In this document: positions 42,463-61,276 of the stretch, one piece after another
Numbering within the stretch: position 1 is the stretch's first letter
How the letters are laid out: each line of letters opens with the position of its first letter
Assembly: GCA_003246455.1 (NCBI GenBank)
Contig: QKAF01000009.1
Span: forward strand, 85,395-149,394
Length of the DNA stretch: 64,000 bases
Source of the DNA: Bacteroidota bacterium
GTDB lineage: Bacteria; Bacteroidota; Ignavibacteria; SZUA-365
Reading direction: 5' to 3'
Translations under genes and position numbers: made by a program
The notes under the pieces: model-generated
What the model saw: only the letters and a program-made list of their open reading frames with translations
Database searches by the model: none
What the model was told of the DNA's origin: nothing

Positions 42463-42598
42463 AAGATCCGCTGTAACCACTCATACTTTCTCGTGTCTAG
42501 TCGGGGAACATCGGATGCAGCCGGGGGCCGATCCGCGTTCGCCAGCGACAATCCTTCTCCTACATACAGCCTTTTCCTTACACCAGCCGGAGTTTCCC

Positions 42599-44662
42599 AT
42601 GATGAAGAAACTGGTTCTGTTGGCCGTTCTGGTACTTGTTCCTGGATTGGTCCTGGCACAGAGGGTGAACGTGAAGTCGCCGGAGGCATCGGACAGGAAT
42701 GCCATCGTACAGTCCGCTGCGCGCACCGTCGACTACCGGATGCAGTTCATGCCCGTTACCGAAAAAACGACGCTGCATCGTACGCAGAAGTCCGCGGGCC
42801 TGCGAAAGCCGGCGGAGCGATACGGGCTCACCGAAATCGGAAATATGGCGAACACTTACGCGATGGTCGGCGACAGCCGCAACCAGATCGCATACGATCC
42901 GAACACCAATACCGTTGCGGTGGTCTACCGCGGCAACGATCGCAGCTCAACGAACGGAGACGGGAACACCCTGTACGTCCGCTATTCCACAGATAACGGC
43001 GCGCACTGGACCTCCTCAGGCGACAACGTGGCGAGTTCCACAACACCGCGCTACCCGAACATCTTCCTGCACTGGGACGGCAGTCAGACGGGCACCGCCC
43101 TGATGTGGCCGCAGGTCGACCGCTTCAACGACGGCACCACCGGTTGGCGCGACATCTATTCGATGAAAAGCGATATCGGCAACGGGAACGCCCAGTACGG
43201 CATTGTTCCCGATCCTCCCTTTTGGTCGATCCCTTACCTGACGGTCCCTGATCAGAGCACGGGTGACCTCTACAACATGGCACTCGGCATCGAGCCCACT
43301 TCCGCTGAGGCGTCGACCGGCGAAATCTACCTGCTTCGCTCCACCGACGGGGGGCTGAACTGGACCCCGGTAACTTTCGATGCGCCGGTGTTCACCGCGG
43401 ACATGGTCCCCAACGGGTATTTCTCCTCGAACCTCCGTCTCGACATCAGTCCCGACGGCAGCACGATGATCGTGGCCTTCGCACTGATCATAGAAAGCGA
43501 GCCCGGCAGCGCGTTCCTCCTTGACAAGAATCATGAAATCGCATGGCGTATCTCCACGGACAAGGGTATGACCTGGGGTCCGCTGCAGCGCATGTGGCCG
43601 GGCGACATCAAGAACAAGCCCGCCCCCTTCGACGCGAAATGGGAAATGTCGTGGGATTTCGACGTCATACTCGATTACAAGAATCGCCCGCATTTCCTGA
43701 CCGTTGCCTCCGCCGACATCTATCCGTTCAGCCCATTCAACGACGCGCCGACGGATTCCACCATCAACCTGAGCAGCGTCGACTCCACGTTCGCGACCGA
43801 GATCACCTACTATGAGGATGGCGGGGAACGCGAGTGGCGTATTTTCCCCATCGGACCGGTTCGCCGCGTGCGGATCGACCGAATGTCCTTCACATCCGCC
43901 TCCGCCACCGATTCGCCGGAGATGATCCGCAACGAACCGAAGTGGGCCCGCAGCTGGGACGGGAAAAAGATCTATGCCAAATGGATATCCCCGATGTCTT
44001 CGTGGACCGTCGCCCCGGTGGCCGGCACCCCGACGCTGTTCGCCGACTCCCTCTATCAAATCTACGTCAACGGGCGCCACGTCGACAGTAAATCCGTTCT
44101 CGCATGGACCTACGCATGGCCGTTCGGCTACCCCGACGCGGTGACCCCCGAGATGGACGCCGACATGCGAATGACCGCCACGGAAGACGTGATGACCAAG
44201 TACACGAAGATGGCGTACTACGCCGGCGAGGATGGCTCCCTGCACATCATTTTCGTCGAATGGGGAATCGGCGAGACCCTCGACGACGATCCCGTCAACA
44301 CCGACCAGACCGTCTGGTATTGCGGGACGAGCGGCGAAGGCGCGTTCGTCGTATCGGTGCCGTATGTTCTCGACGTCGAGCAGATCGACGATGTGCCGGG
44401 TGATTTCACCCTTGCACAGAACTACCCCAATCCGTTCAACCCGAGCACGGAAATCACCTTTACGCTTCCGAAAGACGGTCAGACGACGCTCCGCGTCTTC
44501 AACCTACTCGGCCGGGAAGTCGCCACACTCGTCCGTGAGTACCGCAGCGCCGGGACCCATCGCGTGACCTTCGATGCAAGCGCCCTGCCGACCGGCATGT
44601 ACGTCTACCGGCTCGAGAGCGGGCCTTTCACCGCATCCCGGAAAATGATGCTCGGCAAGTAG
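42599..44662 (+). CDS. BNR/Asp-box repeat secreted protein with a T9SS C-terminal domain – paralog B (about three-quarters identical to paralog A)
   Basis: ATG at 42599 (MMKKLVLLAVLVLVPGLVLAQ) follows GGAG. Long blocks match paralog A, for example YSMKSDIGN.NAQYGI…, HFLTV.SADIYPFSPFNDAPTDSTI. Asp-boxes STDNGAHWTS, STDGGLNWTP, STDKGMTWGP. C-terminal LAQNYPNPFNPSTEITFTLP… The 5' part of the six-frame ORF (42515-42598) is not supported. Confidence 0.8.
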   Translation: MMKKLVLLAVLVLVPGLVLAQRVNVKSPEASDRNAIVQSAARTVDYRMQFMPVTEKTTLHRTQKSAGLRKPAERYGLTEIGNMANTYAMVGDSRNQIAYDPNTNTVAVVYRGNDRSSTNGDGNTLYVRYSTDNGAHWTSSGDNVASSTTPRYPNIFLHWDGSQTGTALMWPQVDRFNDGTTGWRDIYSMKSDIGNGNAQYGIVPDPPFWSIPYLTVPDQSTGDLYNMALGIEPTSAEASTGEIYLLRSTDGGLNWTPVTFDAPVFTADMVPNGYFSSNLRLDISPDGSTMIVAFALIIESEPGSAFLLDKNHEIAWRISTDKGMTWGPLQRMWPGDIKNKPAPFDAKWEMSWDFDVILDYKNRPHFLTVASADIYPFSPFNDAPTDSTINLSSVDSTFATEITYYEDGGEREWRIFPIGPVRRVRIDRMSFTSASATDSPEMIRNEPKWARSWDGKKIYAKWISPMSSWTVAPVAGTPTLFADSLYQIYVNGRHVDSKSVLAWTYAWPFGYPDAVTPEMDADMRMTATEDVMTKYTKMAYYAGEDGSLHIIFVEWGIGETLDDDPVNTDQTVWYCGTSGEGAFVVSVPYVLDVEQIDDVPGDFTLAQNYPNPFNPSTEITFTLPKDGQTTLRVFNLLGREVATLVREYRSAGTHRVTFDASALPTGMYVYRLESGPFTASRKMMLGK

Positions 44663-46438: not shown

Positions 46439-47779
46439 ATGTCTACCGCACTGAACGACTTCATGCAGGAAGTCAAAGCCAAGAACCCCGGAGAAGCCGA
46501 GTTTCATCAGGCAGTTGAAGAAGTTGTCGAAACGCTGATGCCGGTTGTTGAAAAGCAGCCGGAATATCGCAAGGCCAAGGTTCTTGAGCGCATGGTCGAA
46601 CCCGAGCGCACCATTTCTTTCCGTGTTCCCTGGGTCGCCGATAACGGAGAAGTCCGCGTCAACCGCGGCTACCGCATCGAGTTCAACAGCGCCATCGGTC
46701 CCTACAAGGGCGGTCTGCGGTTCCACCCGAGTGTCACCCTGAGCATTCTGAAGTTCCTCGGCTTCGAGCAGATCTTCAAGAATTCCCTCACGACGCTCCC
46801 GATGGGCGGCGGAAAGGGCGGTTCGGACTTCGACCCGAAGTTCAAATCGAAAAACGAAATCATGCGTTTCTGCCAGAGCTTTATGAGTGAACTGTTCCGT
46901 CACATCGGCCCGAACACCGACGTGCCCGCCGGCGATATCGGCGTGGGTGGACAGGAAATCGGTTTCATGTTCGGCCAGTACAAAAAGCTGAAAAATTCAT
47001 TCGACGGCGTGCTGACGGGTAAAGGCCTGAGCTGGGGCGGATCCCTCATCCGTCCGGAAGCGACCGGCTTCGGCGTCACCTACTTCGCCAATGAAATGCT
47101 CAAGACCAAGGGCCAGTCCTTCGAAGGCAAGACCGTCGCCATCTCCGGCTTCGGAAATGTCGCCTGGGGCGCGGCGATCAAGGTCAACGACATGGGCGGC
47201 AAGGTCGTCACGCTTTCCGGTCCCGACGGATACATCTTCGACCCCGCCGGCATCTCCGGTGAGAAGATCGAATACATGCTGGAGCTCCGCGCGAGCAACC
47301 AGGACATCGTCGAGCCGTATGCCGAGCGCTTTGGCGTGGAATTCATCCCCAACAAGCACCCGTGGGAAGTCAAGTGCGACGTCGCACTCCCCTGCGCGAC
47401 CCAGAACGAACTCAACGAGGAAGACGCGAAGAACCTGCTCGCAAACGGCTGCATCTGCGTATGCGAAGGCGCGAACATGCCCACCACTCCGGAAGGCGCG
47501 AAGCTGTTCCTTGATGCCGGTCTGCTCTACGGACCTGCCAAGGCGGCGAACGCCGGTGGCGTGGCCGTGTCGGGTCTCGAAATGTCGCAGAACTCCATCC
47601 GCATGAGCTGGTCGCGTGAAGAGGTGGATCAGCATCTGCATCGCATCATGAAGAATATCCACCAATCCTGCCTCGACGCCAGTGCTCAGTACGGCATGGC
47701 AGGGAATTACGTTGCCGGTGCAAACATTGCCGGATTCACGAAAGTGGCCGACGCCATGCTCGCCCAAGGCATCGTATAA
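46439..47779 (+). CDS. gdhA: NADP-specific glutamate dehydrogenase (GdhA type, 446 aa) – copy 1
   Basis: MSTALNDFMQEVKAKNP…[10 protein letters not shown]…[15 protein letters not shown]…[14 protein letters not shown]… are the canonical hexameric GDH (E. coli GdhA-like) blocks. Confidence 0.95.
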   Translation: MSTALNDFMQEVKAKNPGEAEFHQAVEEVVETLMPVVEKQPEYRKAKVLERMVEPERTISFRVPWVADNGEVRVNRGYRIEFNSAIGPYKGGLRFHPSVTLSILKFLGFEQIFKNSLTTLPMGGGKGGSDFDPKFKSKNEIMRFCQSFMSELFRHIGPNTDVPAGDIGVGGQEIGFMFGQYKKLKNSFDGVLTGKGLSWGGSLIRPEATGFGVTYFANEMLKTKGQSFEGKTVAISGFGNVAWGAAIKVNDMGGKVVTLSGPDGYIFDPAGISGEKIEYMLELRASNQDIVEPYAERFGVEFIPNKHPWEVKCDVALPCATQNELNEEDAKNLLANGCICVCEGANMPTTPEGAKLFLDAGLLYGPAKAANAGGVAVSGLEMSQNSIRMSWSREEVDQHLHRIMKNIHQSCLDASAQYGMAGNYVAGANIAGFTKVADAMLAQGIV

Positions 47780-47851: not shown

Positions 47852-50800
47852 CTATGCATGCACTTCGCCGGTCATCTCCTCGTCTTCCTTTTCCTTCTTG
47901 AACACCACCCCTGAACCGCTCTGCCCGTCGACGAGGATCTCGAGACGGTGCGGCGCGCGAACATGACGCACGTACGCGGTTTCGCCGACGATCTCGAGCG
48001 AATCGAGCCACGCCCAGTCGATGGTGTCCTCCGCCTTGTAGTGACGGGTGGTGAAATACGCGATGTGGAAAGAGGTGAGGTTCTGGAAAAAATGCGACCC
48101 CTGCGACGGATCCGGGAGCATATTCGGAAGCGACGTTTCGACGATGGCATGCGCCCCGGAAATCCCCGGGAAGCGGACCGGGATGCCCAGCCAGGGATCG
48201 GCGGAACCCCAGCGCCCCGGACCGATAAGCAGATAGGGACGCTGCTCCTCGACGAGACGCTTGTTGATTTCCGCGATCTCATTGGCCATTTCCTTCGTGC
48301 GCGCATTTTCGAAACTGTCGGGCTTCACGTAGACGATATCCCGCAGCCGGTAAATGCCGTTACCGAGCACGTTCTCGCTCTTCAGCAGCAGTTCCTCACG
48401 CCGGAGGTTTGCGAAGTCGATCTCGACGGTGCCCTCTTCCTTGACCATCGGACGCACCTGGAGGAAATCGAATTCGCTGATATCGTCGAAGTGCCGGCCG
48501 AGCACGCCCGCAAATTCGATTTCCACCGGACAGTTCATCGCCGTTTCGCAGAGTTCCATGAGCAGCCGCAGCACCTTCGCCAGCGGAATATATTCCGACT
48601 GCAGGATCGGCGCGAAATTCACGACGCGGAGTCCTTTCCGGAACGTGCCCTCGTATAGCGAATCGTCCTCTGTGCAGAACGTCGACGCGAGATAGTCGAT
48701 CGTGCCGTACTCCTCGGCGACTTTCATGTCGAGGAAATCCAGGTTTTCGTCCTCGCTCGGATCCTCTTCGAGCGGATGCGACTCGAGGTTCACGGCGAAG
48801 AACTTCTTCTGCGAATTGGTGTAATAGTCCTTCCGCGTGGCGAACTGCGGCATGATCGTCGGATACTGGGGGCAGAACTGCGCGCTGACCCCGCCGTCGA
48901 CGATGGTCTTGCCCAGCCCCACGGCGAGATTCACGATGCCGTCGGCCTGCCGGGCGTCGCCGAACGGGTAGTAGTTGAACGAGCGCGCGACCCCGGAGTA
49001 ATGCGGATAATAATGGTGCTTGTAGCGGCGGCCCGACATCTCCTGGATGATCACCGCCATCTGCTCTTCCTCGAGTCGATGGCCAGTGGCCTCGATGTAG
49101 TTTTTCGCGCCGCGGAGATAGGTCGACGCGTACACGTACTTGATCGCCTGTTCAAGCTCCTGGAATCGCGCGTACGGATCGGGATTGCTGTTCGGAAGCA
49201 TGACCGTGGCATAGATCCCGGCGAACGGCTGATACAGCGTATCCTCGAGAAGACTCGAAGACCGGATCGCGAGCGGATGCTGATTGCGCAGCACGACCGC
49301 GCGCAGATCCTCTTCGATCGTGTTCGGGAAACGGGCGTGCATGAAAAGGCTGACGATTTCCTCGTCGGGGATGTTCTGAATCACCTGCGGAAGCAGGTTG
49401 TTCAGCTCCATGAACTGCACGAAGACCTCGGTACAGAGGATGATGCTCCGAGGAATCTTGATGCGGACATTCGGGAAATACGACGGATGCAGGTAATTCT
49501 TCAGGATGTTGTCGATGAACGCCAGGCCGCGGGCCTTTCCGCCGAGGGACCCCCGGCCGATGCGCAGGAACGTGGCGCGGGAATCGAATTCCTCGTGCGA
49601 GAAATCCGCGATCAGCCCGCGCTCGTCATAGATCACGAGTTCGTCGATTTTCCGGATGATATACCGGCGCAGCGACTCGATGGTCTTGAATTCGGTGATC
49701 TTCACCGGCTTGATTTCCTGCGCCAGCCGGAAACGGGTGCGCGCCAGCAGCCAGTTGCTGAAATGATCCCGCGACGCATGGAAGAGCAGCGAATCGTCGG
49801 GAATCGTATGCAGCCGCTGGCGCAGCTGCCGGATCGTCCGCGCACGGTCGACCTCGGTTCCGTCCGGCATACGGAAGATGAACTCCCCGAAGCCGAAATT
49901 CGTGAGCATGAATTCGCGGACCTCCTGCAGCAGCGTGCGGGAATTCTTGTTCGCGAACGCGGCATCCAGCGCGTCGACCTCGTCGCGAAGATCCTCGCGC
50001 GAGGACTGCACGAGAACGGGGAGCTCCGGACTGTGTTCGCGCACCCGCCGGATGTACTTGAGTCCTGCGAATTCGTCTTCGATATCGTTGATCGGGAACT
50101 TCAGGTCGGTGATGATGCCCAGGAGTTCGTTTCGGTACTTGTGGTAGTAGCGCCATGCCTGCTCGAAATTGGTCGCGTGCAGGATCTTGGGCCGCGCGCG
50201 CTGCCGCAGGAGCTTCTCGGCGAAATTCTTGCCCTCCTCGATCAGCATCTGCCCCTGCTTGATCAGTTCGGTGTAGATCAGCGGCAGGAACGACGAGTAG
50301 AACTGCGGCGAATCCTCGACGAGAATGATGGCGCGAACCCCGAAATCCTTGCAGTCGATGCGCGCATTGGCCAGATCCTCGAGCTGCTTGATAATGGCGA
50401 GAAACAGTTTGCGGTCGCCCGACCAGACGAAGACCCGATCGAACAGATTCAGCGCGCCCTGGTTCATCAGCACCTGCAGTTCCCGGCTCTGGTAGCCGAG
50501 CAGCGCCACGGGCACGTCGGCATGCGCTTCCTTGACCGCCTGACAGAAATCCTGCAGGCGCATGTCGCCGAGGCGCATCATGGTGATGACCAGGTCGAAG
50601 CGGCTCTCATCCATCGCCGCGAGCGCGGCCTCTCCCGAGTAGACCCGCGTGATCGACGGGGCGTAATGCAGATTCAGTTCGAGGTACTCGCTGAAAATCG
50701 CCTCGGTGAGCTGCCCGTCGTCGACCAGGGTATAGAAGTCGTAGCGGCTCGATACGAGCAGGATGTTGTTGACGCGGAAGCGCATCAGATCCTTGAAATC

Positions 50801-50890
50801 CAGGTCGTGCGGACTGATATCCTTGTCGGAAAACCCGAAATCCAGAATGAGGTCGCGCAGCTCGTCGCGCTTGATCCTTTTGCGTTTCAT
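47852..50890 (-). CDS. Multidomain protein: N-terminal pseudo-receiver plus receiver-like (CheY-fold) domains fused to a PEP/pyruvate-binding ATP-grasp nucleotide-binding domain (PPDK_N-like) and a conserved C-terminal module – copy 1 (1012 aa)
   Basis: Minus-strand ATG at 50890 (MKRKRIKRDEL…). Receiver-like segments (…RFRVNNILLVSS…FDLVITMMRLGDM… and …RAIILVEDSP…LGIITDLKFP…PVLVQSS…). PPDK_N hallmark …FLRIGRGSLGGKARGLAFI… and …LAIRSSSLLED…. C-terminal …LLIGPGRWGSADPWLGIPV…SQGSHFFQNLTSFHIAYF…. Confidence 0.8.
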   Translation of the reverse strand: MKRKRIKRDELRDLILDFGFSDKDISPHDLDFKDLMRFRVNNILLVSSRYDFYTLVDDGQLTEAIFSEYLELNLHYAPSITRVYSGEAALAAMDESRFDLVITMMRLGDMRLQDFCQAVKEAHADVPVALLGYQSRELQVLMNQGALNLFDRVFVWSGDRKLFLAIIKQLEDLANARIDCKDFGVRAIILVEDSPQFYSSFLPLIYTELIKQGQMLIEEGKNFAEKLLRQRARPKILHATNFEQAWRYYHKYRNELLGIITDLKFPINDIEDEFAGLKYIRRVREHSPELPVLVQSSREDLRDEVDALDAAFANKNSRTLLQEVREFMLTNFGFGEFIFRMPDGTEVDRARTIRQLRQRLHTIPDDSLLFHASRDHFSNWLLARTRFRLAQEIKPVKITEFKTIESLRRYIIRKIDELVIYDERGLIADFSHEEFDSRATFLRIGRGSLGGKARGLAFIDNILKNYLHPSYFPNVRIKIPRSIILCTEVFVQFMELNNLLPQVIQNIPDEEIVSLFMHARFPNTIEEDLRAVVLRNQHPLAIRSSSLLEDTLYQPFAGIYATVMLPNSNPDPYARFQELEQAIKYVYASTYLRGAKNYIEATGHRLEEEQMAVIIQEMSGRRYKHHYYPHYSGVARSFNYYPFGDARQADGIVNLAVGLGKTIVDGGVSAQFCPQYPTIMPQFATRKDYYTNSQKKFFAVNLESHPLEEDPSEDENLDFLDMKVAEEYGTIDYLASTFCTEDDSLYEGTFRKGLRVVNFAPILQSEYIPLAKVLRLLMELCETAMNCPVEIEFAGVLGRHFDDISEFDFLQVRPMVKEEGTVEIDFANLRREELLLKSENVLGNGIYRLRDIVYVKPDSFENARTKEMANEIAEINKRLVEEQRPYLLIGPGRWGSADPWLGIPVRFPGISGAHAIVETSLPNMLPDPSQGSHFFQNLTSFHIAYFTTRHYKAEDTIDWAWLDSLEIVGETAYVRHVRAPHRLEILVDGQSGSGVVFKKEKEDEEMTGEVHA

Positions 50891-51197: not shown

Positions 51198-52622
<1,425 letters not shown>

Positions 52623-52709: not shown

Positions 52710-55700
52710 CTATGACCCGTTTCGCAGCGTCTGCTTCAGCACCGCCCCGTTGCCGGTGTGGCCGTCCACCAGGATGGTGATATCCTCCGGCGGACGCACG
52801 TGGCGCGTGTGACGCGTCTCCTCGATACAGTCGAGACTGTCGAGCCAGCTCCAGTCGATAGCGTGTTCCTCGTTGTAGTGACGGAGCGTGAAGTACGCGA
52901 TGCGGAAGGACGTGAGGTTCTGAAAGAAGTGCGACCCCTGTGAAGGATCGATGATCATGTTCGGCAGCGTGGTTTCCACGATGGCGCGCGCGGCGGAAAT
53001 GTCGGAGAAAACCACCGGGATGCCCAGCGACGGATCGCTGCTCCCCCAGCGTCCGGGACCGATCAGCAGGTACGACCGGCGCTCGTGCAGCAGGGAGTGG
53101 TTGATCGCACTGATCTCCCCGACCATCTCCCGCGTTTTCATCGCGTCGAACGTGTCCGGCTTGACGTATACGATGTCACGGACTCGCGAAATCCCGTTCC
53201 CGAGCGCCTTCTCGCAGCGGAACAGGAGCTGCTCGCCGGGCAGCGCCTCGATATCGAGATTCGCCCCGGACTCCTGCTTCACCATCGGTCGAAGCTGGAG
53301 AAAACTGAACTCGGCCGGGAGCGGCGTTCCGCTGCCGAGCCGCACCGCGAATTCAATCTCGACCGGCGCGTTCACAGCGGTCTCGCACATGTTGACGAGC
53401 AGCTTGATCACCTGGTTCAGCGGGATGATCTCCGATTTGAGTATGGGAGCGAAAGTCAGGATGCGCGGACCGCTTCGGCTCATTCCCTCGTACAGCCGGT
53501 CATCCTGTCCGGAATACGTGCTGGCCACATGCGTCAGCGTCCCGTGCGCTTCCGCGTCCTTGAGTTCCAGTTCCGCCAGGTTCTGGTCCTCCCGCGGGTA
53601 TTTCCGGATGATATCCGACTGCAGGTCGAGCGCGAAAAACTTCAGCTGGGAATTGTGAAACAGATCCCGTGTCGTGCCGAACTGGGGATACACCGTCGGG
53701 TACGCGGGCGAGAACTGCAGGCTGGTCCCGCCGTCCACGATCGTCTTTCCGAGTCCCAGCGCGAGATTGACGACACCGTCCTTCTGCGTCGCCTTCCCGA
53801 AGGGATAGTAATTGAAAGACCGGGCGACGCCGGAAACGCGCGGATAGAAATACCGTCCGTGCCGCGTTCCCACCATCTCCTGGATGATCACCGCCATCTT
53901 TTCTTCTTCGATGCGGTTCGAAGTCGCCTCGATATAGTTCTTCGCCTGGCGGAAGTACGTGGAGGCGAACACGTACTTGATCGCCTGCAGGAGATTGTGG
54001 AAGCGTACCGAGATGTCCGGACTGCTGTTCGGTATCATGATCGTGGCGTAGATCCCCGCGAACGGCTGGTACATCGCATCCTCCAGCAGCGAGGAGGAGC
54101 GTATCGCCAGCGGGAAACGGGCCTTGTCGAGGATCGCGCGCAGATCGCCCAGGATCGTCGGCGGAAGGTCCGCGTGGAGGAAGGCCCGGAGGATTTCCTG
54201 GTCGGAAACGTTCTGCACAGCGACGGAAAGCAGGTCGTTCTGCTCGACGAATTCCGCGAACACATCCGTTCCGAGCACGATGGTGCGCGGAATGGAGATG
54301 CGCATGTTGGGGAAATAATCGGGTTCGAGATATTTCCGGAGCAGATTGTCCGTGAAGGCGAGACCGCGGCCCTTCCCGCCAAGCGACCCGGAACCGATGC
54401 GAAGGAAAGTGTCTTCCGCGTCATATTCGCCGCGGGCGAAATCCGAGATCACCCCTTTCTGATCCTGCACGAGCTGTTCGTTGATCGCCATGATCAGGTA
54501 CGCCCGCAATTCGTCGATGGAGGGGAACTGGGTGACCTTCACCGGCTTCAGGCGGTTCGACAGTTCGAAGCGCGTTCGCGCCTTAAGCCAGTTGCTGAAG
54601 TGATCGCGCGATGCGTGGAACTCGAGGCAGGCGTCGGGGACGAGGTGGAGACGTTCGCGCAGTTCGCGCAGGTTTCGCGCCCGCGTGACCTCGCTGCCGT
54701 CGGGCATGCGGAAGATGAAATCTCCGAAGCCGAAGTTGTCCTTCATGAAATCGCTCAGCGACTGCAGCAGCATACGCGAGTTCTTGTCGACGAAAGACAT
54801 TCCCTCGCGCTCGATTTCGAGACGCAGTTCGGTGTTGGAAGACTGCACGAGGATCGGGAGTTCGGGATTGTCCGCGCGTACGAGACGGGCCAGTTTGAGT
54901 CCCGCCGGTTCCTCGTCGTTCCCCGCTCCGGGGAATGTCATGTCGGCGATGATGCCGAGCATGGTTCTCCGGTATTTCTCATAGAACGCGACGGCTTCCT
55001 CGAAGGAGCGCGCGAGAAAGATTTTCGGACGGGCCCGCTGCCGAAGCAGCTTGTCCGCGAAGTTCTTCCCTTCCTCGATCAGGTCCTGCACCTGCTGGAT
55101 CAGGTCGGCATACATGAGCGGGAGATACGAGGAATAAAACCACGGCGAATCCTCCACGAGAAGAATCGTGCGCACTCCGAATTCCAGGCAGTCGACGGGC
55201 GCGTTGCGCAGATCCTCGAACAGCTTGATCAGCGCGAGGAACAGCTTCCGGTCGCCCGACCAGACGAATACGTTGTCGAAACAGGTCGTATCGATCGTCT
55301 TGAGGAACATTTCGAATTCGGCGGAGGGAAACGAGAGCAGCACCATCGGAATTTCAGGATGCTGCCGCTTAACCGAAGTGCAGAACGATGCGAGATCCAT
55401 GTCCCCGAGACGCAGCATCGAGATGACGAGGTCGAAATCCTGCGACTCGAGCAGACGCAGGGCCGCTTCACCCGAATTCACCCGGACGATATGCGGCGCA
55501 TAGTGCAGGTTCAGTTCGGTGTACTCGTTGAAAATGGCCTCGGTCAGCTGGCCGTCCTCCACGAGGGTGTAATAGTCGTACAGGCTGGAGACAAGCAGGA
55601 TGTTGTTGATGCGGAAACGCATCAGATCGCGAAAATCGAGCTGCCGCGTGCGCGGAACAGCGTCACCGACCACGTGGAGTCTGATCAGGTCGGTGACTTC

Positions 55701-55727
55701 GTCAATATTTGTGGACCATGACTTCAT
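52710..55727 (-). CDS. Receiver–PEP/pyruvate-binding (PPDK_N-like) multidomain protein – copy 2 (1005 aa), paralog of 47852-50890
   Basis: Minus-strand ATG at 55727 follows AAGAGGA. Same architecture as copy 1 and roughly two-thirds identical to it: …RFRINNILLVSSLYDYY…, …RTILLVEDSP…LGIIADMTFP…, …FLRIGSGSLGGKGRGLAF…, …LIGPGRWGSSDPSLGIPV…SQGSHFFQNLTSFRIAYF… It sits 28 bp downstream of the third dehydrogenase gene on the same strand, suggesting co-transcription. Confidence 0.8.
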   Translation of the reverse strand: MKSWSTNIDEVTDLIRLHVVGDAVPRTRQLDFRDLMRFRINNILLVSSLYDYYTLVEDGQLTEAIFNEYTELNLHYAPHIVRVNSGEAALRLLESQDFDLVISMLRLGDMDLASFCTSVKRQHPEIPMVLLSFPSAEFEMFLKTIDTTCFDNVFVWSGDRKLFLALIKLFEDLRNAPVDCLEFGVRTILLVEDSPWFYSSYLPLMYADLIQQVQDLIEEGKNFADKLLRQRARPKIFLARSFEEAVAFYEKYRRTMLGIIADMTFPGAGNDEEPAGLKLARLVRADNPELPILVQSSNTELRLEIEREGMSFVDKNSRMLLQSLSDFMKDNFGFGDFIFRMPDGSEVTRARNLRELRERLHLVPDACLEFHASRDHFSNWLKARTRFELSNRLKPVKVTQFPSIDELRAYLIMAINEQLVQDQKGVISDFARGEYDAEDTFLRIGSGSLGGKGRGLAFTDNLLRKYLEPDYFPNMRISIPRTIVLGTDVFAEFVEQNDLLSVAVQNVSDQEILRAFLHADLPPTILGDLRAILDKARFPLAIRSSSLLEDAMYQPFAGIYATIMIPNSSPDISVRFHNLLQAIKYVFASTYFRQAKNYIEATSNRIEEEKMAVIIQEMVGTRHGRYFYPRVSGVARSFNYYPFGKATQKDGVVNLALGLGKTIVDGGTSLQFSPAYPTVYPQFGTTRDLFHNSQLKFFALDLQSDIIRKYPREDQNLAELELKDAEAHGTLTHVASTYSGQDDRLYEGMSRSGPRILTFAPILKSEIIPLNQVIKLLVNMCETAVNAPVEIEFAVRLGSGTPLPAEFSFLQLRPMVKQESGANLDIEALPGEQLLFRCEKALGNGISRVRDIVYVKPDTFDAMKTREMVGEISAINHSLLHERRSYLLIGPGRWGSSDPSLGIPVVFSDISAARAIVETTLPNMIIDPSQGSHFFQNLTSFRIAYFTLRHYNEEHAIDWSWLDSLDCIEETRHTRHVRPPEDITILVDGHTGNGAVLKQTLRNGS

Positions 55728-55755: not shown

Positions 55756-57042
55756 TCAAACCCAGCCGCGCATCTTGCAGGCTTCCGCGACGCGCGCGAT
55801 CGCGATCATATAGGCCGCGTCCCGCATCGGGATGTTCCGGCGATGCGCCATCTGCGAAACGGCAAAGTATGCATCGGTCATCTTGGTGTCGAGCTTCGCG
55901 ATCACTTCGTCGCGCGTCCAGTAGTAGTTCATGTTGCTCTGCACCTGCTCGAAGTAACTGCAGGTGACGCCGCCGGCGTTTGCAAGGAAGTCCGGGATGA
56001 GCCATATGCCTTTCTCCCGTATGACCGCGTCCGCCGCGGGAGTGGTCGGACCGTTGGCGCCCTCCGCGACGATGCGGACACCGTTCTTCATTCCCTTGAC
56101 CGTGTCGCGGTTCACCTGGTTCTCCATCGCCGCAGGGATGAGGACATCCACTTCCTGCTCGATCCAGGCGTCGCCCGGGAGCACTTCGTACCCGGCATCC
56201 GCGGCCTTGTCGCGGCTGATCTCTCCGTAGGAGTTCGTCATCGCGCGCAGCTGCCTGAGGTCCACGCCGTCTTTTTTTCTCACCGTGAAGGCCGCCTGTG
56301 CTTTCTGATCCCAGCTGGCGACGCTGATCACCTTTCCGCCGTAGGAGTGGAAGAGATCGATGGCGTGCTGTCCGACGTTGCCGAATCCCTGCACCGATGC
56401 GGTACTGTCTTCGATTCGCAGATTCATTTCCGCGAGCGCTTCGCGCACTGCGTAAATCACGCCGTAGCCGGTCGACTCGGTGCGGCCGAGCGACCCGCCC
56501 AGCCCGATGGGCTTGCCCGTGATGAATCCGGGGGCATGTTTCCCCGTGAGCGTCTCGTATTCATCCAGCATCCAGAGCATGTGCTGCGCGGATGTCATCA
56601 CGTCGGGTGCGGGCACGTCGCGGTCGGGTCCGACGCTTTCGACGATATTGCGCACCCAGCCGCGACAGAGTGCCTCCTGCTCTCGCAGCGAAAGGTTGTG
56701 CGGATCGCAGATGACGCCCCCTTTCCCGCCGCCGAGCGGAATGTCGACGACCGCCGTCTTCCAGGTCATCCACATCGAGAGCGCCCGCACGGTGTCGACG
56801 GTCTCCTGCGGATGGAAGCGCACTCCGCCTTTACAGGCGCCGCGCGCGTCATTGTGCTGGATGCGGAATCCGCGGAACACCTGGTAGCTTCCGTCGTCCA
56901 TGCGGATCGGGATGTTGAAGTGAAATTCCTTTGCCGGCGTGCGCAGCAGCGCACGGGTCGCTTCGTCAAGTCCGAGCTGTTCCGCAATCGTATCGAACTG
57001 CTGCTGCGCCATACGGAACGGGTTGAATGCTTCGCCACTCAT
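55756..57042 (-). CDS. Glu/Leu/Phe/Val dehydrogenase family protein, short (~428 aa) GDH type, probably NAD(P)-glutamate dehydrogenase – third GDH-family gene
   Basis: ATG at 57042 follows AGGAGA. MSGEAFNPFRMAQQQFD… with …GACKGGVRFHP…DIPLGGGKGGV…GPDRDVPAPDV… The 5' part of the six-frame ORF (57043-57168) is not supported. Confidence 0.9.
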   Translation of the reverse strand: MSGEAFNPFRMAQQQFDTIAEQLGLDEATRALLRTPAKEFHFNIPIRMDDGSYQVFRGFRIQHNDARGACKGGVRFHPQETVDTVRALSMWMTWKTAVVDIPLGGGKGGVICDPHNLSLREQEALCRGWVRNIVESVGPDRDVPAPDVMTSAQHMLWMLDEYETLTGKHAPGFITGKPIGLGGSLGRTESTGYGVIYAVREALAEMNLRIEDSTASVQGFGNVGQHAIDLFHSYGGKVISVASWDQKAQAAFTVRKKDGVDLRQLRAMTNSYGEISRDKAADAGYEVLPGDAWIEQEVDVLIPAAMENQVNRDTVKGMKNGVRIVAEGANGPTTPAADAVIREKGIWLIPDFLANAGGVTCSYFEQVQSNMNYYWTRDEVIAKLDTKMTDAYFAVSQMAHRRNIPMRDAAYMIAIARVAEACKMRGWV

Positions 57043-57187
57043 GCCTTGTCTCCTGGACGGTACGAAATCGGGTGGAACGGCCGCGCTCCGCAGCCCGCGA
57101 AGATGCGTCCTGAGCAGGCAAGGTATCATTTTTCCCCGGAATTTCCCTATTTTCATCCTGATCTCCACTGTTCACGGGCAGGATGCG

Positions 57188-60100
57188 ATGAACATGAACA
57201 AGAAGGAAAAATCCCTCGGCGACCTGCTGTATGCCCTCGGAGAGCGCGCCAAGGAACTGAACTGCCTCTATCATGTCGAGGAAGTTCTCTCGCGGAACGA
57301 TGCGGCGCAGGAAGAGGTGCTCAATGGAATCATCGCGGCCATCCCGCCGGGATGGCAGTTTCCGGACATCTGCCGCGTCCGAATCCGCCTCGGGAATAAA
57401 TCCTTCACCTCCCCGGAATTCCAGCCCACACAATGGAAGCTCGTTTCCTCCATCGTCGTTCAGGACAAGGTGGAGGGCAGCATCGAAGTCTACTACGCGC
57501 GCGAAGTCGGCACCGCGGACGAGGGGCCCTTCCTGCATGAAGAGCGGAAGCTGATCAACACCATCGCAGAGCGCATCGGACACTATCTCCTCCATCAGCA
57601 GCTCAGGCATGTCTTCAACGAATGGCAGACACTCAAGGAGCAGCTCGCCGAGAACAAGCGGCCGGAGTGGAAAGTCATCCTGGAAATGCTGCGCCGCACC
57701 GATCAGAACCTCTACACGCGCATTTCACGGAAGATGCTGAACCGCCTCTGCTGGTCGGGCATCAAAACCGCCTGCGAATTGATGCAGCGTTTCGGCACGC
57801 GCAACGGGGACAGCCAGGACGTCTTCGGCGAAAGCAACCGTCCCCGGCAGCGCGAGGAGCTCTACAACTTCATGTCGTCGAGCGATGAAATCTTCCAGAT
57901 AGCGGCCGAACATCTCAGCGACGAAGAAATCCTGTCACTGATCCAGAAGTGGATCAAGGACGACAAGGCGTCCTTCCTTGTCAACACGGTCGAGAATCTC
58001 GACACCTCTCTCTCCGAGATCGTCGACGCCATCGGCCGTTTCTACCATATTTTTCCTGAAGGAATTGAACTCTCGCCGTCAACCGAAAAGGGCCTGCGGG
58101 TCTCGCTGATCCGGCGATTCTTCACCGAACAGCTTCCGTACATCAATGTCGCGAAGCAGTACCTCGAGGTGCGCGATTTCGCGGAGCTCGTACGCCGCAT
58201 CATCTTCCATCAGAAAAGCCACGGGAAACTTGGGGGGAAAAGCTCGGGGCTGTTCCTCGCGGGACAGATCCTCATGAAGGAAGGCGGGGAAAGCGGCCGC
58301 TTCCCGAACGTCCGCATTCCGAAGACCTGGTACATCACATCAGACGGCATCCTGAATTTCATCCATTACAATAACCTGGAAGAGGTCTTCAACCAGAAGT
58401 ATCTCGACATCGAGCAGGTGCGCGAGGAATACCCGTCGATCATCCAGGTGTTCAAGAACTCCTATTTCTCCCCGGAATTCATCAAGGGGCTGACGATGGC
58501 GCTGGACGATTTCGGCGACATCCCCCTGATCGTCCGCAGTTCCTCGCTGCTCGAAGACAGCATGAACGCCGCGTTCTCCGGGAAATACAAAAGCCTCTTT
58601 CTCGCGAATACCGGGACGAAAGCCGAGCGGATGGCCGCGCTGCTCGATGCCATCGCGGAAGTGTATGCTTCGACTTTCGGTCCCGATCCCATCGAGTACC
58701 GCGCCGAACGCGGGCTGCTCGATTTCCACGAAGAGATGGGCATCATGATCCAGGAGGTCGTCGGCACGCGCATCGGCCGGTATCTCATGCCGGTATGGTC
58801 GGGCGTCGCGTTCAGTCACAACGAATTCCGCTGGTCGCCGCGCATCAAACGGGAAGACGGCCTGATCCGGCTCGTGCCGGGACTCGGGACGCGCGCGGTG
58901 GATCGCGTGGGAGACGATTATCCCGTGCTCATCGCACCGGGACAGCCGTCGCTCCGCGTGAACATAACACCGGATGAGATTGTCCGTTATTCTCCCAAGA
59001 AAATCGACGTCATCAATCTCGAGAGCAGCAGCTTCGAGACCGTCGATATTCTCGACCTGCTGCGTGAAACCGGACATTCCTACCCGGGCATCAACACCAT
59101 CGTCTCGCAGTATGACGGCGACACCATCCGTCAGCCGTTCGGCTTCGACCTCGATTTCGAAAAGAGCGTGTATGCGGTGACGTTCAACGGACTGATCGCC
59201 AGCACGCGCTTTCTCAAGAATATCCGGGAAATGCTGCTGCTGCTGCAGGAACGCCTCCAGACGCCCGTGGACATCGAATTCGCGTCCGACGGCAGGGACC
59301 TGTACCTCCTGCAGTGCCGGCCGCAGAGTTTCACCCGTCACAATATTCCGGCACCGATCCCGCAGGACATTCCGCGCGAACGGAAGCTGTTCACGGCGCA
59401 GCGCTACATATCGAACGGACACGTGCCCGACATCACGCATATCGTCTACGTCCATCCCGACAGGTACGCCGCCCTGCCCGACCGACAGGCGCTGCTGTCC
59501 GTCGGACGCTGCGTCGGGCGCCTGAACAAGGTTCTGCCCAAGCGCCAGTTCACCCTGATGGGTCCCGGCCGCTGGGGCAGCCGCGGCGACATCAAGCTGG
59601 GGGTGAACGTGACCTACTCCGATATCAACAACACCGCCCTGCTTGTCGAAATTGCGCACGACCTCGGCGGCTACCTCCCCGACCTCTCTTTCGGCACGCA
59701 CTTCTTCCAGGATCTCGTCGAGTCGTCGATCCGCTATCTGCCGCTGTATCCCGACGAGGCGGATGTCCATTTCAACGAAGCCTTCCTGACGCGCAGCAAA
59801 AACATTCTGGCGGACATCCTCCCCGATTACGCGTTTCTGTCCGACACGGTGTTCGTCATCGACGTCAGTGCGAGCAGCGGCGGGAAAATTCTCCGCGTGC
59901 TGATGAATGCGGAAATCGAACAGGCGGTGGGCTATCTCGAGGACCCGGTCAACGTTCAGCCGGAACCGCAGGACTTTCCCGCACCCGTGCAGCGCACCGT
60001 CGAGGATCACTGGGAATGGCGGCTGCGCATGGCCGAACGGCTCGCCAACGATCTCCATCCGGAGGACTTCGGCATCAAGGGACTGTATATCTTCGGGAGC

Positions 60101-60370
60101 ACGAAAAACGGGACAGCGGGGCCGTCGAGCGACATCGACCTGCTCGTGCATCACGACGCGAGCCCCGAGCAGATGCAGTGCATGCAGCACTGGTTTCTCG
60201 GCTGGGGGCAGAGCCTGGCCGAGGTCAACTTCCTCCGCACCGGGTATCGGAATGACAATATTCTCGATATCCACTACGTCACCGACGACGACATCGCGCG
60301 CCGCAGCAGTTACGCCGCGAAAATCAACGCCATCACCGATGCCGCGCGTCCCCTGCGCATTCATCCGTAG
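57188..60370 (+). CDS. Multidomain protein: N-terminal GAF-like region, a PEP/pyruvate-binding ATP-grasp (PPDK_N-like) domain, the shared C-terminal module, and a C-terminal Pol-beta-type nucleotidyltransferase domain (1060 aa)
   Basis: ATG at 57188 (MNMNKKEKSLGDLLYALGERAKELNCLYHV…). The 'ELNCLY' motif is seen at GAF-type sensor N-termini. PPDK_N hallmark …HQKSHGKLGGKSSGLFLA… and …LIVRSSSLLEDS…. Shared module …LMGPGRWGSRGDIKLGV…SFGTHFFQDLVESSIRYL…. C-terminal …LYIFGSTKNGTAGPSSDIDLLVHHD… matches the minimal nucleotidyltransferase motif G[GS]x9-13DxD. It is divergently transcribed from the third GDH-family gene. Confidence 0.8.
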   Translation: MNMNKKEKSLGDLLYALGERAKELNCLYHVEEVLSRNDAAQEEVLNGIIAAIPPGWQFPDICRVRIRLGNKSFTSPEFQPTQWKLVSSIVVQDKVEGSIEVYYAREVGTADEGPFLHEERKLINTIAERIGHYLLHQQLRHVFNEWQTLKEQLAENKRPEWKVILEMLRRTDQNLYTRISRKMLNRLCWSGIKTACELMQRFGTRNGDSQDVFGESNRPRQREELYNFMSSSDEIFQIAAEHLSDEEILSLIQKWIKDDKASFLVNTVENLDTSLSEIVDAIGRFYHIFPEGIELSPSTEKGLRVSLIRRFFTEQLPYINVAKQYLEVRDFAELVRRIIFHQKSHGKLGGKSSGLFLAGQILMKEGGESGRFPNVRIPKTWYITSDGILNFIHYNNLEEVFNQKYLDIEQVREEYPSIIQVFKNSYFSPEFIKGLTMALDDFGDIPLIVRSSSLLEDSMNAAFSGKYKSLFLANTGTKAERMAALLDAIAEVYASTFGPDPIEYRAERGLLDFHEEMGIMIQEVVGTRIGRYLMPVWSGVAFSHNEFRWSPRIKREDGLIRLVPGLGTRAVDRVGDDYPVLIAPGQPSLRVNITPDEIVRYSPKKIDVINLESSSFETVDILDLLRETGHSYPGINTIVSQYDGDTIRQPFGFDLDFEKSVYAVTFNGLIASTRFLKNIREMLLLLQERLQTPVDIEFASDGRDLYLLQCRPQSFTRHNIPAPIPQDIPRERKLFTAQRYISNGHVPDITHIVYVHPDRYAALPDRQALLSVGRCVGRLNKVLPKRQFTLMGPGRWGSRGDIKLGVNVTYSDINNTALLVEIAHDLGGYLPDLSFGTHFFQDLVESSIRYLPLYPDEADVHFNEAFLTRSKNILADILPDYAFLSDTVFVIDVSASSGGKILRVLMNAEIEQAVGYLEDPVNVQPEPQDFPAPVQRTVEDHWEWRLRMAERLANDLHPEDFGIKGLYIFGSTKNGTAGPSSDIDLLVHHDASPEQMQCMQHWFLGWGQSLAEVNFLRTGYRNDNILDIHYVTDDDIARRSSYAAKINAITDAARPLRIHP

Positions 60371-60415: not shown

Positions 60416-61276
60416 TCAGAGCAGTTCCCGCGTTGCGTTCTGCGGAAATTCGGGATCGAAGCGGACCAGCGCGAGCTCGGGACCGCGATGCGCGGCGCTG
60501 TAACACCAGCTGTCTCCGAGTTTTTCCTGCCAGCTTCCGGTGATGGAGGCGGATTCGTGGATATGTCCGTGCAGGGTGATGCGGGGCTGCCGCTTGAGGA
60601 TGAATTTCCTGATCGCGACGCTGCCCACGTGCACGTCCACCGGCGCATGATCGATTTTCCTGCCGTCGAGCGCGGCCCGGTCGAGCGCCGTATTATAGGG
60701 CGGCGCGTGAAAGAGCATGATGGCCTGCGAAAGATCCGTATCCCCGGCAAGCTCCTCCAGGTCGGCCTGTATGGTCGCGTAGCGAATTTCCGACGGATTG
60801 ACCGGAATGCTCCGCCGTCCCTCTTCGGGCGATACGCAGCCCGGATCCACGTAACGCGACACGTCGTACCGCTCCCAGTCCTTGAGCTGGAACGGCGAGG
60901 GCGGCACATAGCTGTATCCATACGCGGTATACCCGCCGATCGAATCGCTGCCGCCGTGCAGATACGTCCACAGCGCGGCAAACCGCGATTCGCGCAGCGA
61001 TGCCTCGACCCGACGCGGGTCGTCGTTCCCGAGGATGAGGAAGACCCGGGGATACTGTTCGCCCAAGGCCTCCGAGAGCCGGCGGAGCTGCGCCGCGAGA
61101 TAATCCTCGATGAAATCCGCGACGACGGGAAATTGTGCCGCGGCCGCGCGATGGGCACCCGGAAGCAGATCTCCGCCGAAGAAAACGGCAGCGGGATGCT
61201 CGCGCTCGATCGCATTGAAAAGCTGTTCGTAACGGCGCTGATGTCCGTGCAGGTCGGAGACGAAAAAACAGTTCAT
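60416..61276 (-). CDS. Calcineurin-like metallophosphoesterase
   Basis: MNCFFVSDLHGHQRRYEQL…VFFGGDLLPG…GNDD… are the classic metallophosphoesterase (MPP) motifs DxH…GD…GNH/D. Confidence 0.8.
   Translation of the reverse strand: MNCFFVSDLHGHQRRYEQLFNAIEREHPAAVFFGGDLLPGAHRAAAAQFPVVADFIEDYLAAQLRRLSEALGEQYPRVFLILGNDDPRRVEASLRESRFAALWTYLHGGSDSIGGYTAYGYSYVPPSPFQLKDWERYDVSRYVDPGCVSPEEGRRSIPVNPSEIRYATIQADLEELAGDTDLSQAIMLFHAPPYNTALDRAALDGRKIDHAPVDVHVGSVAIRKFILKRQPRITLHGHIHESASITGSWQEKLGDSWCYSAAHRGPELALVRFDPEFPQNATRELL

Follow-up and report, generated by a model that had tools for sequence, protein, structure and literature searches.

In a 64,000-nucleotide stretch of a Bacteroidota genome (Ignavibacteria, SZUA-365; assembly GCA_003246455.1, contig QKAF01000009.1, positions 85,395 to 149,394 of the forward strand; the whole stretch is hereafter the window), the 1060-residue protein encoded by gene B (57188-60370, plus strand) is a member of a real, widespread and uncharacterised enzyme family that forms part of a module centred on glutamate dehydrogenase (GDH). 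The functional link of B to GDH is strongly backed by synteny, because a short GDH lies upstream of B, within 3.5 kb, in 69 of 71 testable loci (those with at least 3.6 kb of upstream sequence). The other recurring members are a PPDK_N paralogue, here termed A, and a metallophosphoesterase. We propose, at a probability of roughly 0.45, that the module would act under sensor control to attach a covalent mark to GDH, through phosphoryl transfer and/or nucleotidylylation, and so switch its activity reversibly.

Distribution and gene neighbourhood of the B family

A protein search with B returned 6699 matches. The best 120 of these are nearly all full length (two are truncated), and almost all combine PPDK_N with a nucleotidyltransferase (NTase)-type Pfam domain, eight listing PPDK_N alone. 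With each GTDB species represented by a single genome, at least 597 species have a locus that encodes B, and the family is conserved at 55-60% identity over 1060 residues across phyla. The initial annotation had raised the prospect that a fusion confined to this genome might be an assembly chimera; thousands of full-length homologues, one of them identical to B over its length, rule this out.

Gene context was sampled in 80 loci drawn from named metagenome-assembled and other genomes labelled with over a dozen lineage names, among them Bacteroidota, Ignavibacteria, Calditrichota, Zixibacteria, Planctomycetota, Acidobacteriota, Gemmatimonadota, Eisenbacteria, Myxococcales, Spirochaetes, Cloacimonadota and Fermentibacteria. 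Metagenome-assembled genomes of Melioribacter are among the carriers (L007, L018, L051). All-against-all clustering of their open reading frames (ORFs) revealed only three conserved neighbour families of B, namely the short GDH, which is 54-93% identical to the short GDH of the window (GDH3), the PPDK_N paralogue and the metallophosphoesterase. With G for GDH, A for the PPDK_N paralogue, B for gene B and M for the metallophosphoesterase, the loci divide as follows.

G-A-B-M: 33 loci
G-A-B: 17 loci
G-B: 13 loci
G-B-M: 6 loci
No GDH called: 11 loci

In nine of the 11 loci that lack a short GDH, the contig ends less than 2.8 kb upstream of B. The only loci with enough upstream sequence and no short GDH are L022 and L057, and the latter has a GdhA-type GDH downstream instead. 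In the canonical operon GDH precedes A (~585 aa) and A precedes B, with the three genes in the same orientation. From the A stop to the B start the estimated distance is -16 to 0 bp for 48 of 56 loci, which implies translational coupling, and A-B fusion proteins of ~1630-1655 aa also exist.

In the window these genes form part of a 15-kb cluster, delineated from the ORF listing and family scans, that contains three GDHs (two GdhA-type, one short) and three PPDK_N paralogues, two of which carry receiver domains (RR-PPDK_N).

46439-47779, plus strand: GDH1, GdhA type
47852-50890, minus strand: RR-PPDK_N-1, 1012 aa (Pfam PPDK_N 4.1e-37, Response_reg 7.2e-13)
51279-52622, plus strand: GDH2, GdhA type
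52710-55727, minus strand: RR-PPDK_N-2, 1005 aa (Pfam PPDK_N 1.3e-39, Response_reg 1.2e-09)
55756-57042, minus strand: GDH3, 428 aa (Pfam ELFV_dehydrog 3.9e-71, ELFV_dehydrog_N 6.9e-52)
57043-57187: divergent intergenic region between GDH3 and gene B, 145 bp (from ORF coordinates)
57188-60370, plus strand: gene B, 1060 aa, facing GDH3
60416-61276, minus strand: calcineurin-like metallophosphoesterase, 286 aa (Pfam Metallophos 1.9e-10), convergent with B and 45 bp from its stop

GDH1 and GDH2 score 746 and 780 bits against the NCBIfam model for NADP-specific GDH (cut-off 536), so that GDH3 is indeed the third GDH of the window, as first annotated. The co-oriented RR-PPDK_N gene described downstream of it is likewise present, with RR-PPDK_N-2 beginning 28 bp past the GDH3 stop in the same orientation.

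The A protein of the canonical operon consists of PPDK_N and the domain that follows it (the C-domain, described below) and nothing else. In locus L078 this protein has 578 aa, and its alignment with positions 427-1000 of RR-PPDK_N-2 gives 45% identity over 575 residues. RR-PPDK_N-2 and B are 31% identical over the ATP-grasp domain and C-domain. RR-PPDK_N-2 is accordingly the A component of the module and the cognate partner of B, to which component an N-terminal extension has been added, and the window therefore holds a complete module in which A is extended and the GDH-A pair is inverted relative to B. The same extended-A, inverted GDH-A arrangement is shared by the closest relatives, L001-L003 (74-91% identity), and in L002 and L003, both close relatives, the layout of three GDHs and three PPDK_N paralogues is retained as well.

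The extension of RR-PPDK_N-2 comprises a degenerate receiver, a canonical receiver and a weak DUF5752-like match. By direct reading, its first receiver has ILLVSS and a Met at the phospho-Asp position, and its second has ILLVEDS, GIIADM, PILVQSS and FVDKN. This pattern holds for both RR-PPDK_N proteins of the window: within their N-terminal ~330 residues, receiver 1 lacks both the acidic pocket and the phospho-acceptor Asp (ILLVSS..., DLVISM/DLVITM), and receiver 2 looks canonical (ILLVEDS, GIIADM/GIITDL, P(I/V)LVQSS and a Lys motif). A search for the receiver-fused class gave 7366 matches, several members of which bear the NCBI labels 'histidine kinase' or 'response regulator'. PPDK_N paralogues of ~1000 aa adjoin a GDH, mostly of GdhA type by tblastn, in L013, L029, L040, L070, L073 and L079; in L037 there is overlap between the calls, and the GDH of L057 is 3.6 kb distant, on the far side of B. 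Among three independently sampled RR-PPDK_N homologues (45-48% identity), GDH is adjacent in L081 and L082 and 3.3 kb away in L083. The pairing of a GdhA-type GDH with a ~1000-aa RR-PPDK_N recurs in other phyla, and in the window as elsewhere each of the two GDH classes has PPDK_N paralogues as partners. Directly upstream of the RR-PPDK_N and GDH genes in L082 (1697-5974) and L083 (1475-5790), which are unrelated metagenomic contigs, lie saccharopine-pathway-like genes (AlaDh_PNT_N, Sacchrp_dh, Aldedh), a context that hints at a link to lysine or amino-acid catabolism.

Domain architecture of B and its partners

The initial annotation described B as a combination of a GAF-like N-terminus, a PPDK_N domain and a C-terminal Pol-beta nucleotidyltransferase, and all three are present, together with a helical linker and an undescribed fifth domain. 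An AlphaFold model of the full protein (mean predicted local distance difference test score, pLDDT, 79.8) and a set of 72 homologues at 55-91% identity, used throughout for conservation, support the following division, in which all features lie on the plus strand.

57215-57649: GAF-like sensor domain, residues ~10-154 (Foldseek and DSSP on the model)
57650-58225: all-helical linker, residues ~155-346 (DSSP on the model)
58226-59365: PPDK_N ATP-grasp nucleotide-binding domain, residues 347-726 (Pfam E 1.4e-58)
59375-59947: undescribed C-domain, residues ~730-920 (~190 residues), with a swivelling beta/beta/alpha-like fold
60005-60367: minimal (MNT-type) Pol-beta nucleotidyltransferase, residues ~940-1060 (PF01909)

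The ATP-grasp domain clearly belongs to its family. PPDK_N (PF01326) matches at 199.1 bits against a gathering score of 27 and covers profile positions 3-322 of 328. The motifs GGK351, VR450SSSLLED, Q522E, D695-x-E697 and Q709-x-R711 align one-to-one with those of rifampin phosphotransferase (VRSSxxxED, DIEx, QxRP), and K351, R450, Q522, D695, E697, Q709 and R711 are invariant. These residues, which would bind nucleotide and Mg, presumably have the catalytic roles known from mutagenesis of pyruvate phosphate dikinase (PPDK); PPDK mutant entries named K22A and R337A are among the Foldseek matches of B. Its structural matches include rifampin phosphotransferase 5hv3 (E 4.9e-14), 5hv1, 5hv6, phosphoenolpyruvate (PEP) synthase 2ols and HpeI 9goj (E to 6e-10) as well as PPDK, and the TM-score of B against the isolated ATP-binding domain of rifampin phosphotransferase is 0.71. 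By sequence, an NCBIfam scan matched PigC/RedH, and the dikinase equivalogs in that collection gave 16-57 bits against cut-offs of 500-1700. Pfam scans of B found no PEP/pyruvate TIM barrel (PF02896), rifampin-binding domain or other known substrate domain.

The C-domain is common to A and B and ends both the RR-PPDK_N proteins and the ~585-aa A proteins. Its invariant motifs in B are GPGRWGS (792-798) and FGTH838FFQD, the codon of H838 being 59699-59701. The corresponding motifs in the RR-PPDK_N and A proteins are GxGRWG(S/T) and G-S-H-F-F, so that the histidine of the G(S/T)H motif is invariant family-wide. In the model of B, a beta-strand leads through a Gly-rich loop into helix 838-845, which has H838 at its N-terminus; the catalytic His of PPDK (GGMTSH) is placed in the same way. 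A small beta-rich subdomain follows in the model (residues ~860-920 of B). Modelled alone, the C-domain reached a pLDDT of 89.4. Its profile collected 2189 clusters at 50% identity, 1553 of them at E up to 1e-10, and it directly follows PPDK_N in 10 of 10 architectures sampled. Taken together, these features describe a swivel-like, His-bearing domain with a putative role as phosphoryl carrier, and the C-domain defines a new family of His-bearing domains.

Sequence homology of the C-domain to PEP-utiliser domains was sought by three routes, all negative, and is rejected. Pfam gave no match at E up to 10, PEP-utiliser domains included; a profile search of the Protein Data Bank (PDB) gave a sole, spurious 'hit' accumulated over the FNIP repeats of Crov588; and hhalign found no similarity to the PEP-utiliser sequences compared. 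A search of the window and the 80 loci for the canonical GGxTSH motif yielded nothing against which the C-domain could be aligned.

At the C-terminus of B, PF01909 (NTP_transf_2) matches residues 960-995 at 33.5 bits against a gathering score of 21, covering only the motif-bearing half of the profile, and the isolated C-terminal segment matches it at E 3.4e-09. The motif reads F-G970-S971-x10-D982-I-D984-L, with L-D1027-I-H1029 on a later strand. The alignment of the catalytic Asp triad bears out an intact motif set: G970, S971, D982, D1027 and H1029 are invariant and D984 is conserved at 90% or more, which rules out a degenerate NTase for B and for most of the family, one orthologue that reads SDINL being discussed below. 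Foldseek places the domain, with probabilities of 0.87-0.99, among the MNT antitoxins 8xeh, 8xeo, 7ae9 and 7bxo, together with 2rff and 1wot, and the PDB titles of the closest solved structures describe MNT antitoxins by which a HEPN toxin is AMPylated. The proposed resemblance to GlnE therefore stands at the level of the Pol-beta superfamily and fails at that of the family: Pfam scans of whole B and of the C-terminal segment gave no match to GlnE (PF03710) or GlnD_UR_UTase (PF08335), a GlnE-type NTase is ruled out, and the domain is a minimal MNT-type enzyme.

The N-terminus of B is GAF-like at the level of the fold only. The model gives an alpha-alpha-beta4-long alpha arrangement, and its N-terminal ~180 residues match GAF domains with Foldseek probabilities of 0.97-1.00 and E values of only 0.07-0.15 (6oei/3K2N, 6oaq, 6oap, 6ob8, 6ndp and phytochromes, over 180-245 aligned columns); one full-length phytochrome matched at a probability of 0.41. 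The isolated N-terminus had no match to the Pfam GAF models PF01590, PF13185 and PF13492 at E up to 10, and N-terminal fragments of family members are listed by NCBI under the name 'GAF domain-containing protein'. The domain bears an ERxKELxCLY motif at residues 19-28, which includes the 'ELNCLY' noted earlier (residues 23-28); E23, L24, C26 and Y28 are invariant and N25 and L27 are conserved at 90% or more. The helical linker, for which no Pfam family was matched, contains a disordered stretch (204-226), and from residue ~290 onward it aligns with the RR-PPDK_N paralogue.

Turning to the partners of B, GDH3 is a short hexameric-type enzyme that aligns end-to-end with GDHs of ~420 residues (PDB matches 1gtm, 1euz and 1bvu, E about 1e-117). 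Eight positions (D65, C112, H115, C126, W244, W293, C361 and Q366) differ between the Thermococcales enzymes 1gtm, 1euz and 1bvu and a set of 65 short GDHs linked to the module, in which they show 97% conservation or more; W244 falls inside a 6-residue insertion. These are possible interface or modification sites, in a comparison that is confounded by phylogeny.

Of the 80 loci, 41 have an orthologue of the metallophosphoesterase directly after B; in 40 of these it is convergent, and in 33 it is no more than 100 bp from the B stop. At motif III the enzyme of the window has GNDD, not GNH(D/E), by direct inspection, which we take to be nearer to YfcE/MJ0936 phosphodiesterases than to PPP phosphatases. 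The sole NCBIfam match is a weak one to phosphodiesterase PRK09453, and no solved structure was detectably similar by sequence. The enzyme is a candidate eraser.

Proposed function and competing explanations

In terms of mechanism, the reading that we favour begins with two inputs: the GAF-like domain of B would bind a small ligand, and a two-component kinase would phosphorylate the second receiver of A where this is present. The PPDK_N ATP-grasp would bind ATP and phosphorylate the invariant His of the swivel-like domain (H838 in B), as in PEP synthase, PPDK and rifampin phosphotransferase. The His domain would then pass the phosphoryl group to GDH, and/or the MNT-type NTase would move a nucleoside monophosphate from a nucleoside triphosphate onto a GDH side chain, and the convergent metallophosphoesterase would take the modification off. 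We infer each of His phosphorylation, GDH as acceptor, the chemistry of the mark and the role of the eraser.

We favour a protein as the target on four grounds. The inputs are signalling domains (GAF-like and receiver), a domain for substrate binding is lacking, the closest NTase structures are of enzymes that AMPylate a partner protein, and both GDH classes have PPDK_N paralogues beside them. With three GDHs and three PPDK_N partners in 15 kb, the window further suggests separate regulators for anabolic and catabolic GDHs, and reciprocal control of the two. A wider form of the proposal, to which we give slightly less credence, is that more than a dozen lineages share an undescribed post-translational control of GDH. 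It would consist of two paralogous dikinase-like proteins that act on a protein rather than on a metabolite, one equipped with an MNT NTase and a GAF sensor and the other often under two-component control, with the metallophosphoesterase as eraser.

The comparison with known systems is instructive. Like PEP synthase, PPDK and rifampin phosphotransferase, B has an ATP-grasp domain, and the domain after it probably has the swivelling beta/beta/alpha fold, with an invariant His that follows a Ser/Thr at a helix N-terminus. Unlike them, it has a His domain without sequence similarity to PEP-utiliser domains and no PEP/pyruvate TIM barrel or rifampin-binding domain, it has gained GAF or receiver inputs and an NTase within its family, and its genes are linked to GDH. 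B is accordingly not a full dikinase of this type, as it lacks the third domain and its His domain is unrecognisable by sequence. Enzyme I of the PEP-dependent phosphotransferase system offers another parallel, in that B may likewise use a swivelling His domain to phosphorylate a protein; the donor there is PEP via a TIM barrel, not ATP via an ATP-grasp, and there is no sequence similarity. With the HEPN-MNT type VII antitoxins B shares the minimal NTase fold and its hG[GS]...DxD...D motif, and these antitoxins AMPylate a protein partner (the title of 7ae9 is 'mono-AMPylated HEPN toxin in complex with MNT antitoxin'). In contrast to them, B has no HEPN partner, its MNT domain is the C-terminal tail of a 1060-aa protein, and its MntA score is far below cut-off.

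In the E. coli glutamine synthetase (GS) cascade, GlnE nucleotidylylates GS and GlnD nucleotidylylates PII. The concept of a sensor-equipped Pol-beta-superfamily NTase that reversibly nucleotidylylates a protein of nitrogen assimilation is one that B, as proposed here, would share, and B may thus resemble GlnE functionally in nucleotidylylating a nitrogen enzyme. It differs in the absence of a family match, in its architecture, in its presumed target (GDH, not GS or PII) and in its dikinase-like core. A precedent for a GDH switched off by AMPylation comes from mammals, in which Glud1 is inactivated by SelO-mediated AMPylation at a site proposed as Y464, in the antenna (PMC12375108). SelO is a pseudokinase-fold enzyme unrelated to any domain of B. 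GDHs of ~420 residues such as GDH3 presumably lack an antenna.

Regulation of bacterial GDH is credited mainly to transcription, allostery and partner proteins, and we know of no dedicated covalent-modification enzyme for bacterial GDH comparable to GlnE for GS. A literature search for a GDH-PPDK_N link or for this module found no paper. The title of a 1996 paper by Baggio and Morrison states that trans-acting gene(s) downstream of gdhA are needed for the activity of B. thetaiotaomicron GdhA. GdhA-type genes of the window have 3-kb RR-PPDK_N genes downstream of them, and the receiver-fused form found beside GdhA-type enzymes could correspond to those trans-acting gene(s). GDH stands at the junction of carbon and nitrogen metabolism, and the module represents a widely distributed candidate GDH-modifying enzyme. 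It is directly testable, since an obvious substrate and a possible eraser are at hand and point mutants can be designed at K351, H838 and D982/D984. It would also be the first case of a PPDK_N-type ATP-grasp/His-domain enzyme for which a protein target has been suggested.

Several observations weigh against modification of GDH as the function of the module. The initial annotation had envisaged a GDH-directed nucleotidyltransferase as a new regulatory link; synteny upholds the functional connection to GDH, and it is from gene linkage only that GDH is singled out as the proposed substrate. The fold evidence for the His domain is modest; non-homologous members of the same fold (DRTGG, LdcA, chaperonin apical and aconitase swivel domains) score equally. 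The eight module-specific GDH residues are mostly Cys, Trp and His, not the Tyr, Ser or Thr expected for AMPylation or O-phosphorylation, with the phylogenetic confounding noted above. A is uncalled beside B in 19 of the 69 GDH-carrying loci (at least three of the 19 are fusions or probable miscalls), and the metallophosphoesterase is absent from ~40% of loci with downstream sequence. One orthologue of B (L081:10404-13172), 51% identical, without the GAF-like N-terminus and encoded by a gene that follows a GDH, reads SDINL in place of SDIDL; the loss of this second carboxylate means that the NTase may not be the essential activity. Some apparent B-like proteins also stop before the NTase, possibly as truncated gene calls. 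Finally, a class of ~770-790 aa with the same PPDK_N and C-domain core is not adjacent to GDH (L085/L086:6001-8379, protein P0395), its neighbours being a type II secretion system (T2SS) F protein, hypothetical proteins and HU, and the core may therefore serve other targets too.

The strongest competing explanation, which we consider a less probable but serious one, is a metabolic role for A and B: as a dikinase in two parts, joined to a nucleotidyltransferase, they would activate a small molecule of glutamate/2-oxoglutarate metabolism by phosphorylation or adenylylation, with GDH supplying or consuming the compound and the sensors acting allosterically. All characterised PPDK_N relatives (PEP synthase, PPDK, rifampin phosphotransferase, HpeI, PigC/RedH) have small molecules or glucans as substrates. 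Dikinases divided between polypeptides are known: the deposited HpeI chain (9goj, ~390 residues) is a separate one that corresponds to the ATP-grasp domain, and we take it to be half of a two-subunit enzyme. The beta-rich subdomain at ~860-920 could bind a substrate, the linkage of both GDH classes could reflect a common reaction rather than a common protein, and the saccharopine-pathway-like genes upstream in L082 and L083 would also suit a pathway role. Against this, there is no recognisable substrate-binding domain, receiver and GAF inputs are unusual for pathway enzymes, the nearest NTase structures modify proteins, and no other biosynthetic genes are conserved, only GDH, A, B and the phosphoesterase recurring.

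Alternatively, the PPDK_N and His-domain core might be an unorthodox autophosphorylating signalling kinase (ATP to His to a receiver Asp or other regulator) that reports nitrogen/carbon status, GDH being a co-transcribed and regulated gene rather than the substrate. The receivers of extended A proteins, of which the second has the acidic-pocket, phospho-Asp, Ser/Thr and Lys motifs of a canonical receiver, would fit such a kinase, as would the NCBI labels noted above, the invariant His in a mobile-looking domain and the occurrence of the related ~790-aa class without GDH. We regard it as unlikely: most A proteins (~585 aa) have no receiver at all, the module has no DNA-binding or other output domain, the NTase is left unexplained, and translational coupling to GDH over distant phyla is tighter than co-regulation predicts.

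A little less probable still is a role for A and B as ATP-dependent activases or assembly factors that GDH needs for activity, through a non-covalent or transient mechanism instead of a reversible switch. A 3-kb RR-PPDK_N gene directly downstream of the GdhA-type GDH1 and the matched expression implied by operon coupling are compatible with this idea. Short GDHs that closely resemble GDH3 have, however, been crystallised many times, presumably without such a partner, and the sensor domains and paired phosphoesterase suit a switch better than a maturation factor. That the MNT domain is a toxin-antitoxin or anti-phage element fused by chance is effectively refuted by context and hardly credible: the weak PADLOC matches (NTase segment to the candidate MNT-like PDC-S09, E 6e-07; phosphoesterase to PDC-S10) span only ~35 residues of generic NTase motif, the NCBIfam MntA match of 23.8 bits is far below its cut-off of 60, there is no HEPN partner, the adjacent genes encode GDH and the metallophosphoesterase, housekeeping genes lie around them, and the module is vertically widespread with fixed GDH linkage and shows no distinct island in base composition.

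The cluster in the window and its surroundings

With respect to gene starts, a GTG at 57168 upstream of GDH3 merely extends the ORF, and homologues align to the 428-aa form. Gene B has an alternative start at its second ATG (57194), the one used by the database entry that is identical to B over its length (1058 aa).

The initial annotation described a 145-bp divergent promoter region between GDH3 and gene B. The gap is as stated, and its designation as a promoter derives from gene geometry: promoter and terminator consensus scans of 57043-57187 found nothing above chance, the promoter scan being of sigma-70 type, which does not cover Bacteroidota promoters. L002 and L003 retain two blocks of the region, although 80-150 bp are inserted between the blocks. 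The first is GCAAGGTATCATTTTTCC and the second is TTC(C/G)CTATTTTC...CCTGAT, with small differences between sequences; such conserved blocks may be regulatory sites.

GC content is even over the region, and the flanks of the cluster are unrelated to it, encoding BNR proteins sorted by the type IX secretion system (T9SS), a metallo-beta-lactamase-fold protein, endonuclease III and an M20 peptidase. Tandem paralogues at 40201-42246 and 42515-44662 have BNR/Asp-box and Reelin-subrepeat-like matches and a T9SS C-terminal sorting domain, which is consistent with a Bacteroidota/FCB-group origin of the window. Further upstream, at 18423-24494, a 2023-aa ORF on the minus strand overlaps an 1126-aa ORF on the plus strand.

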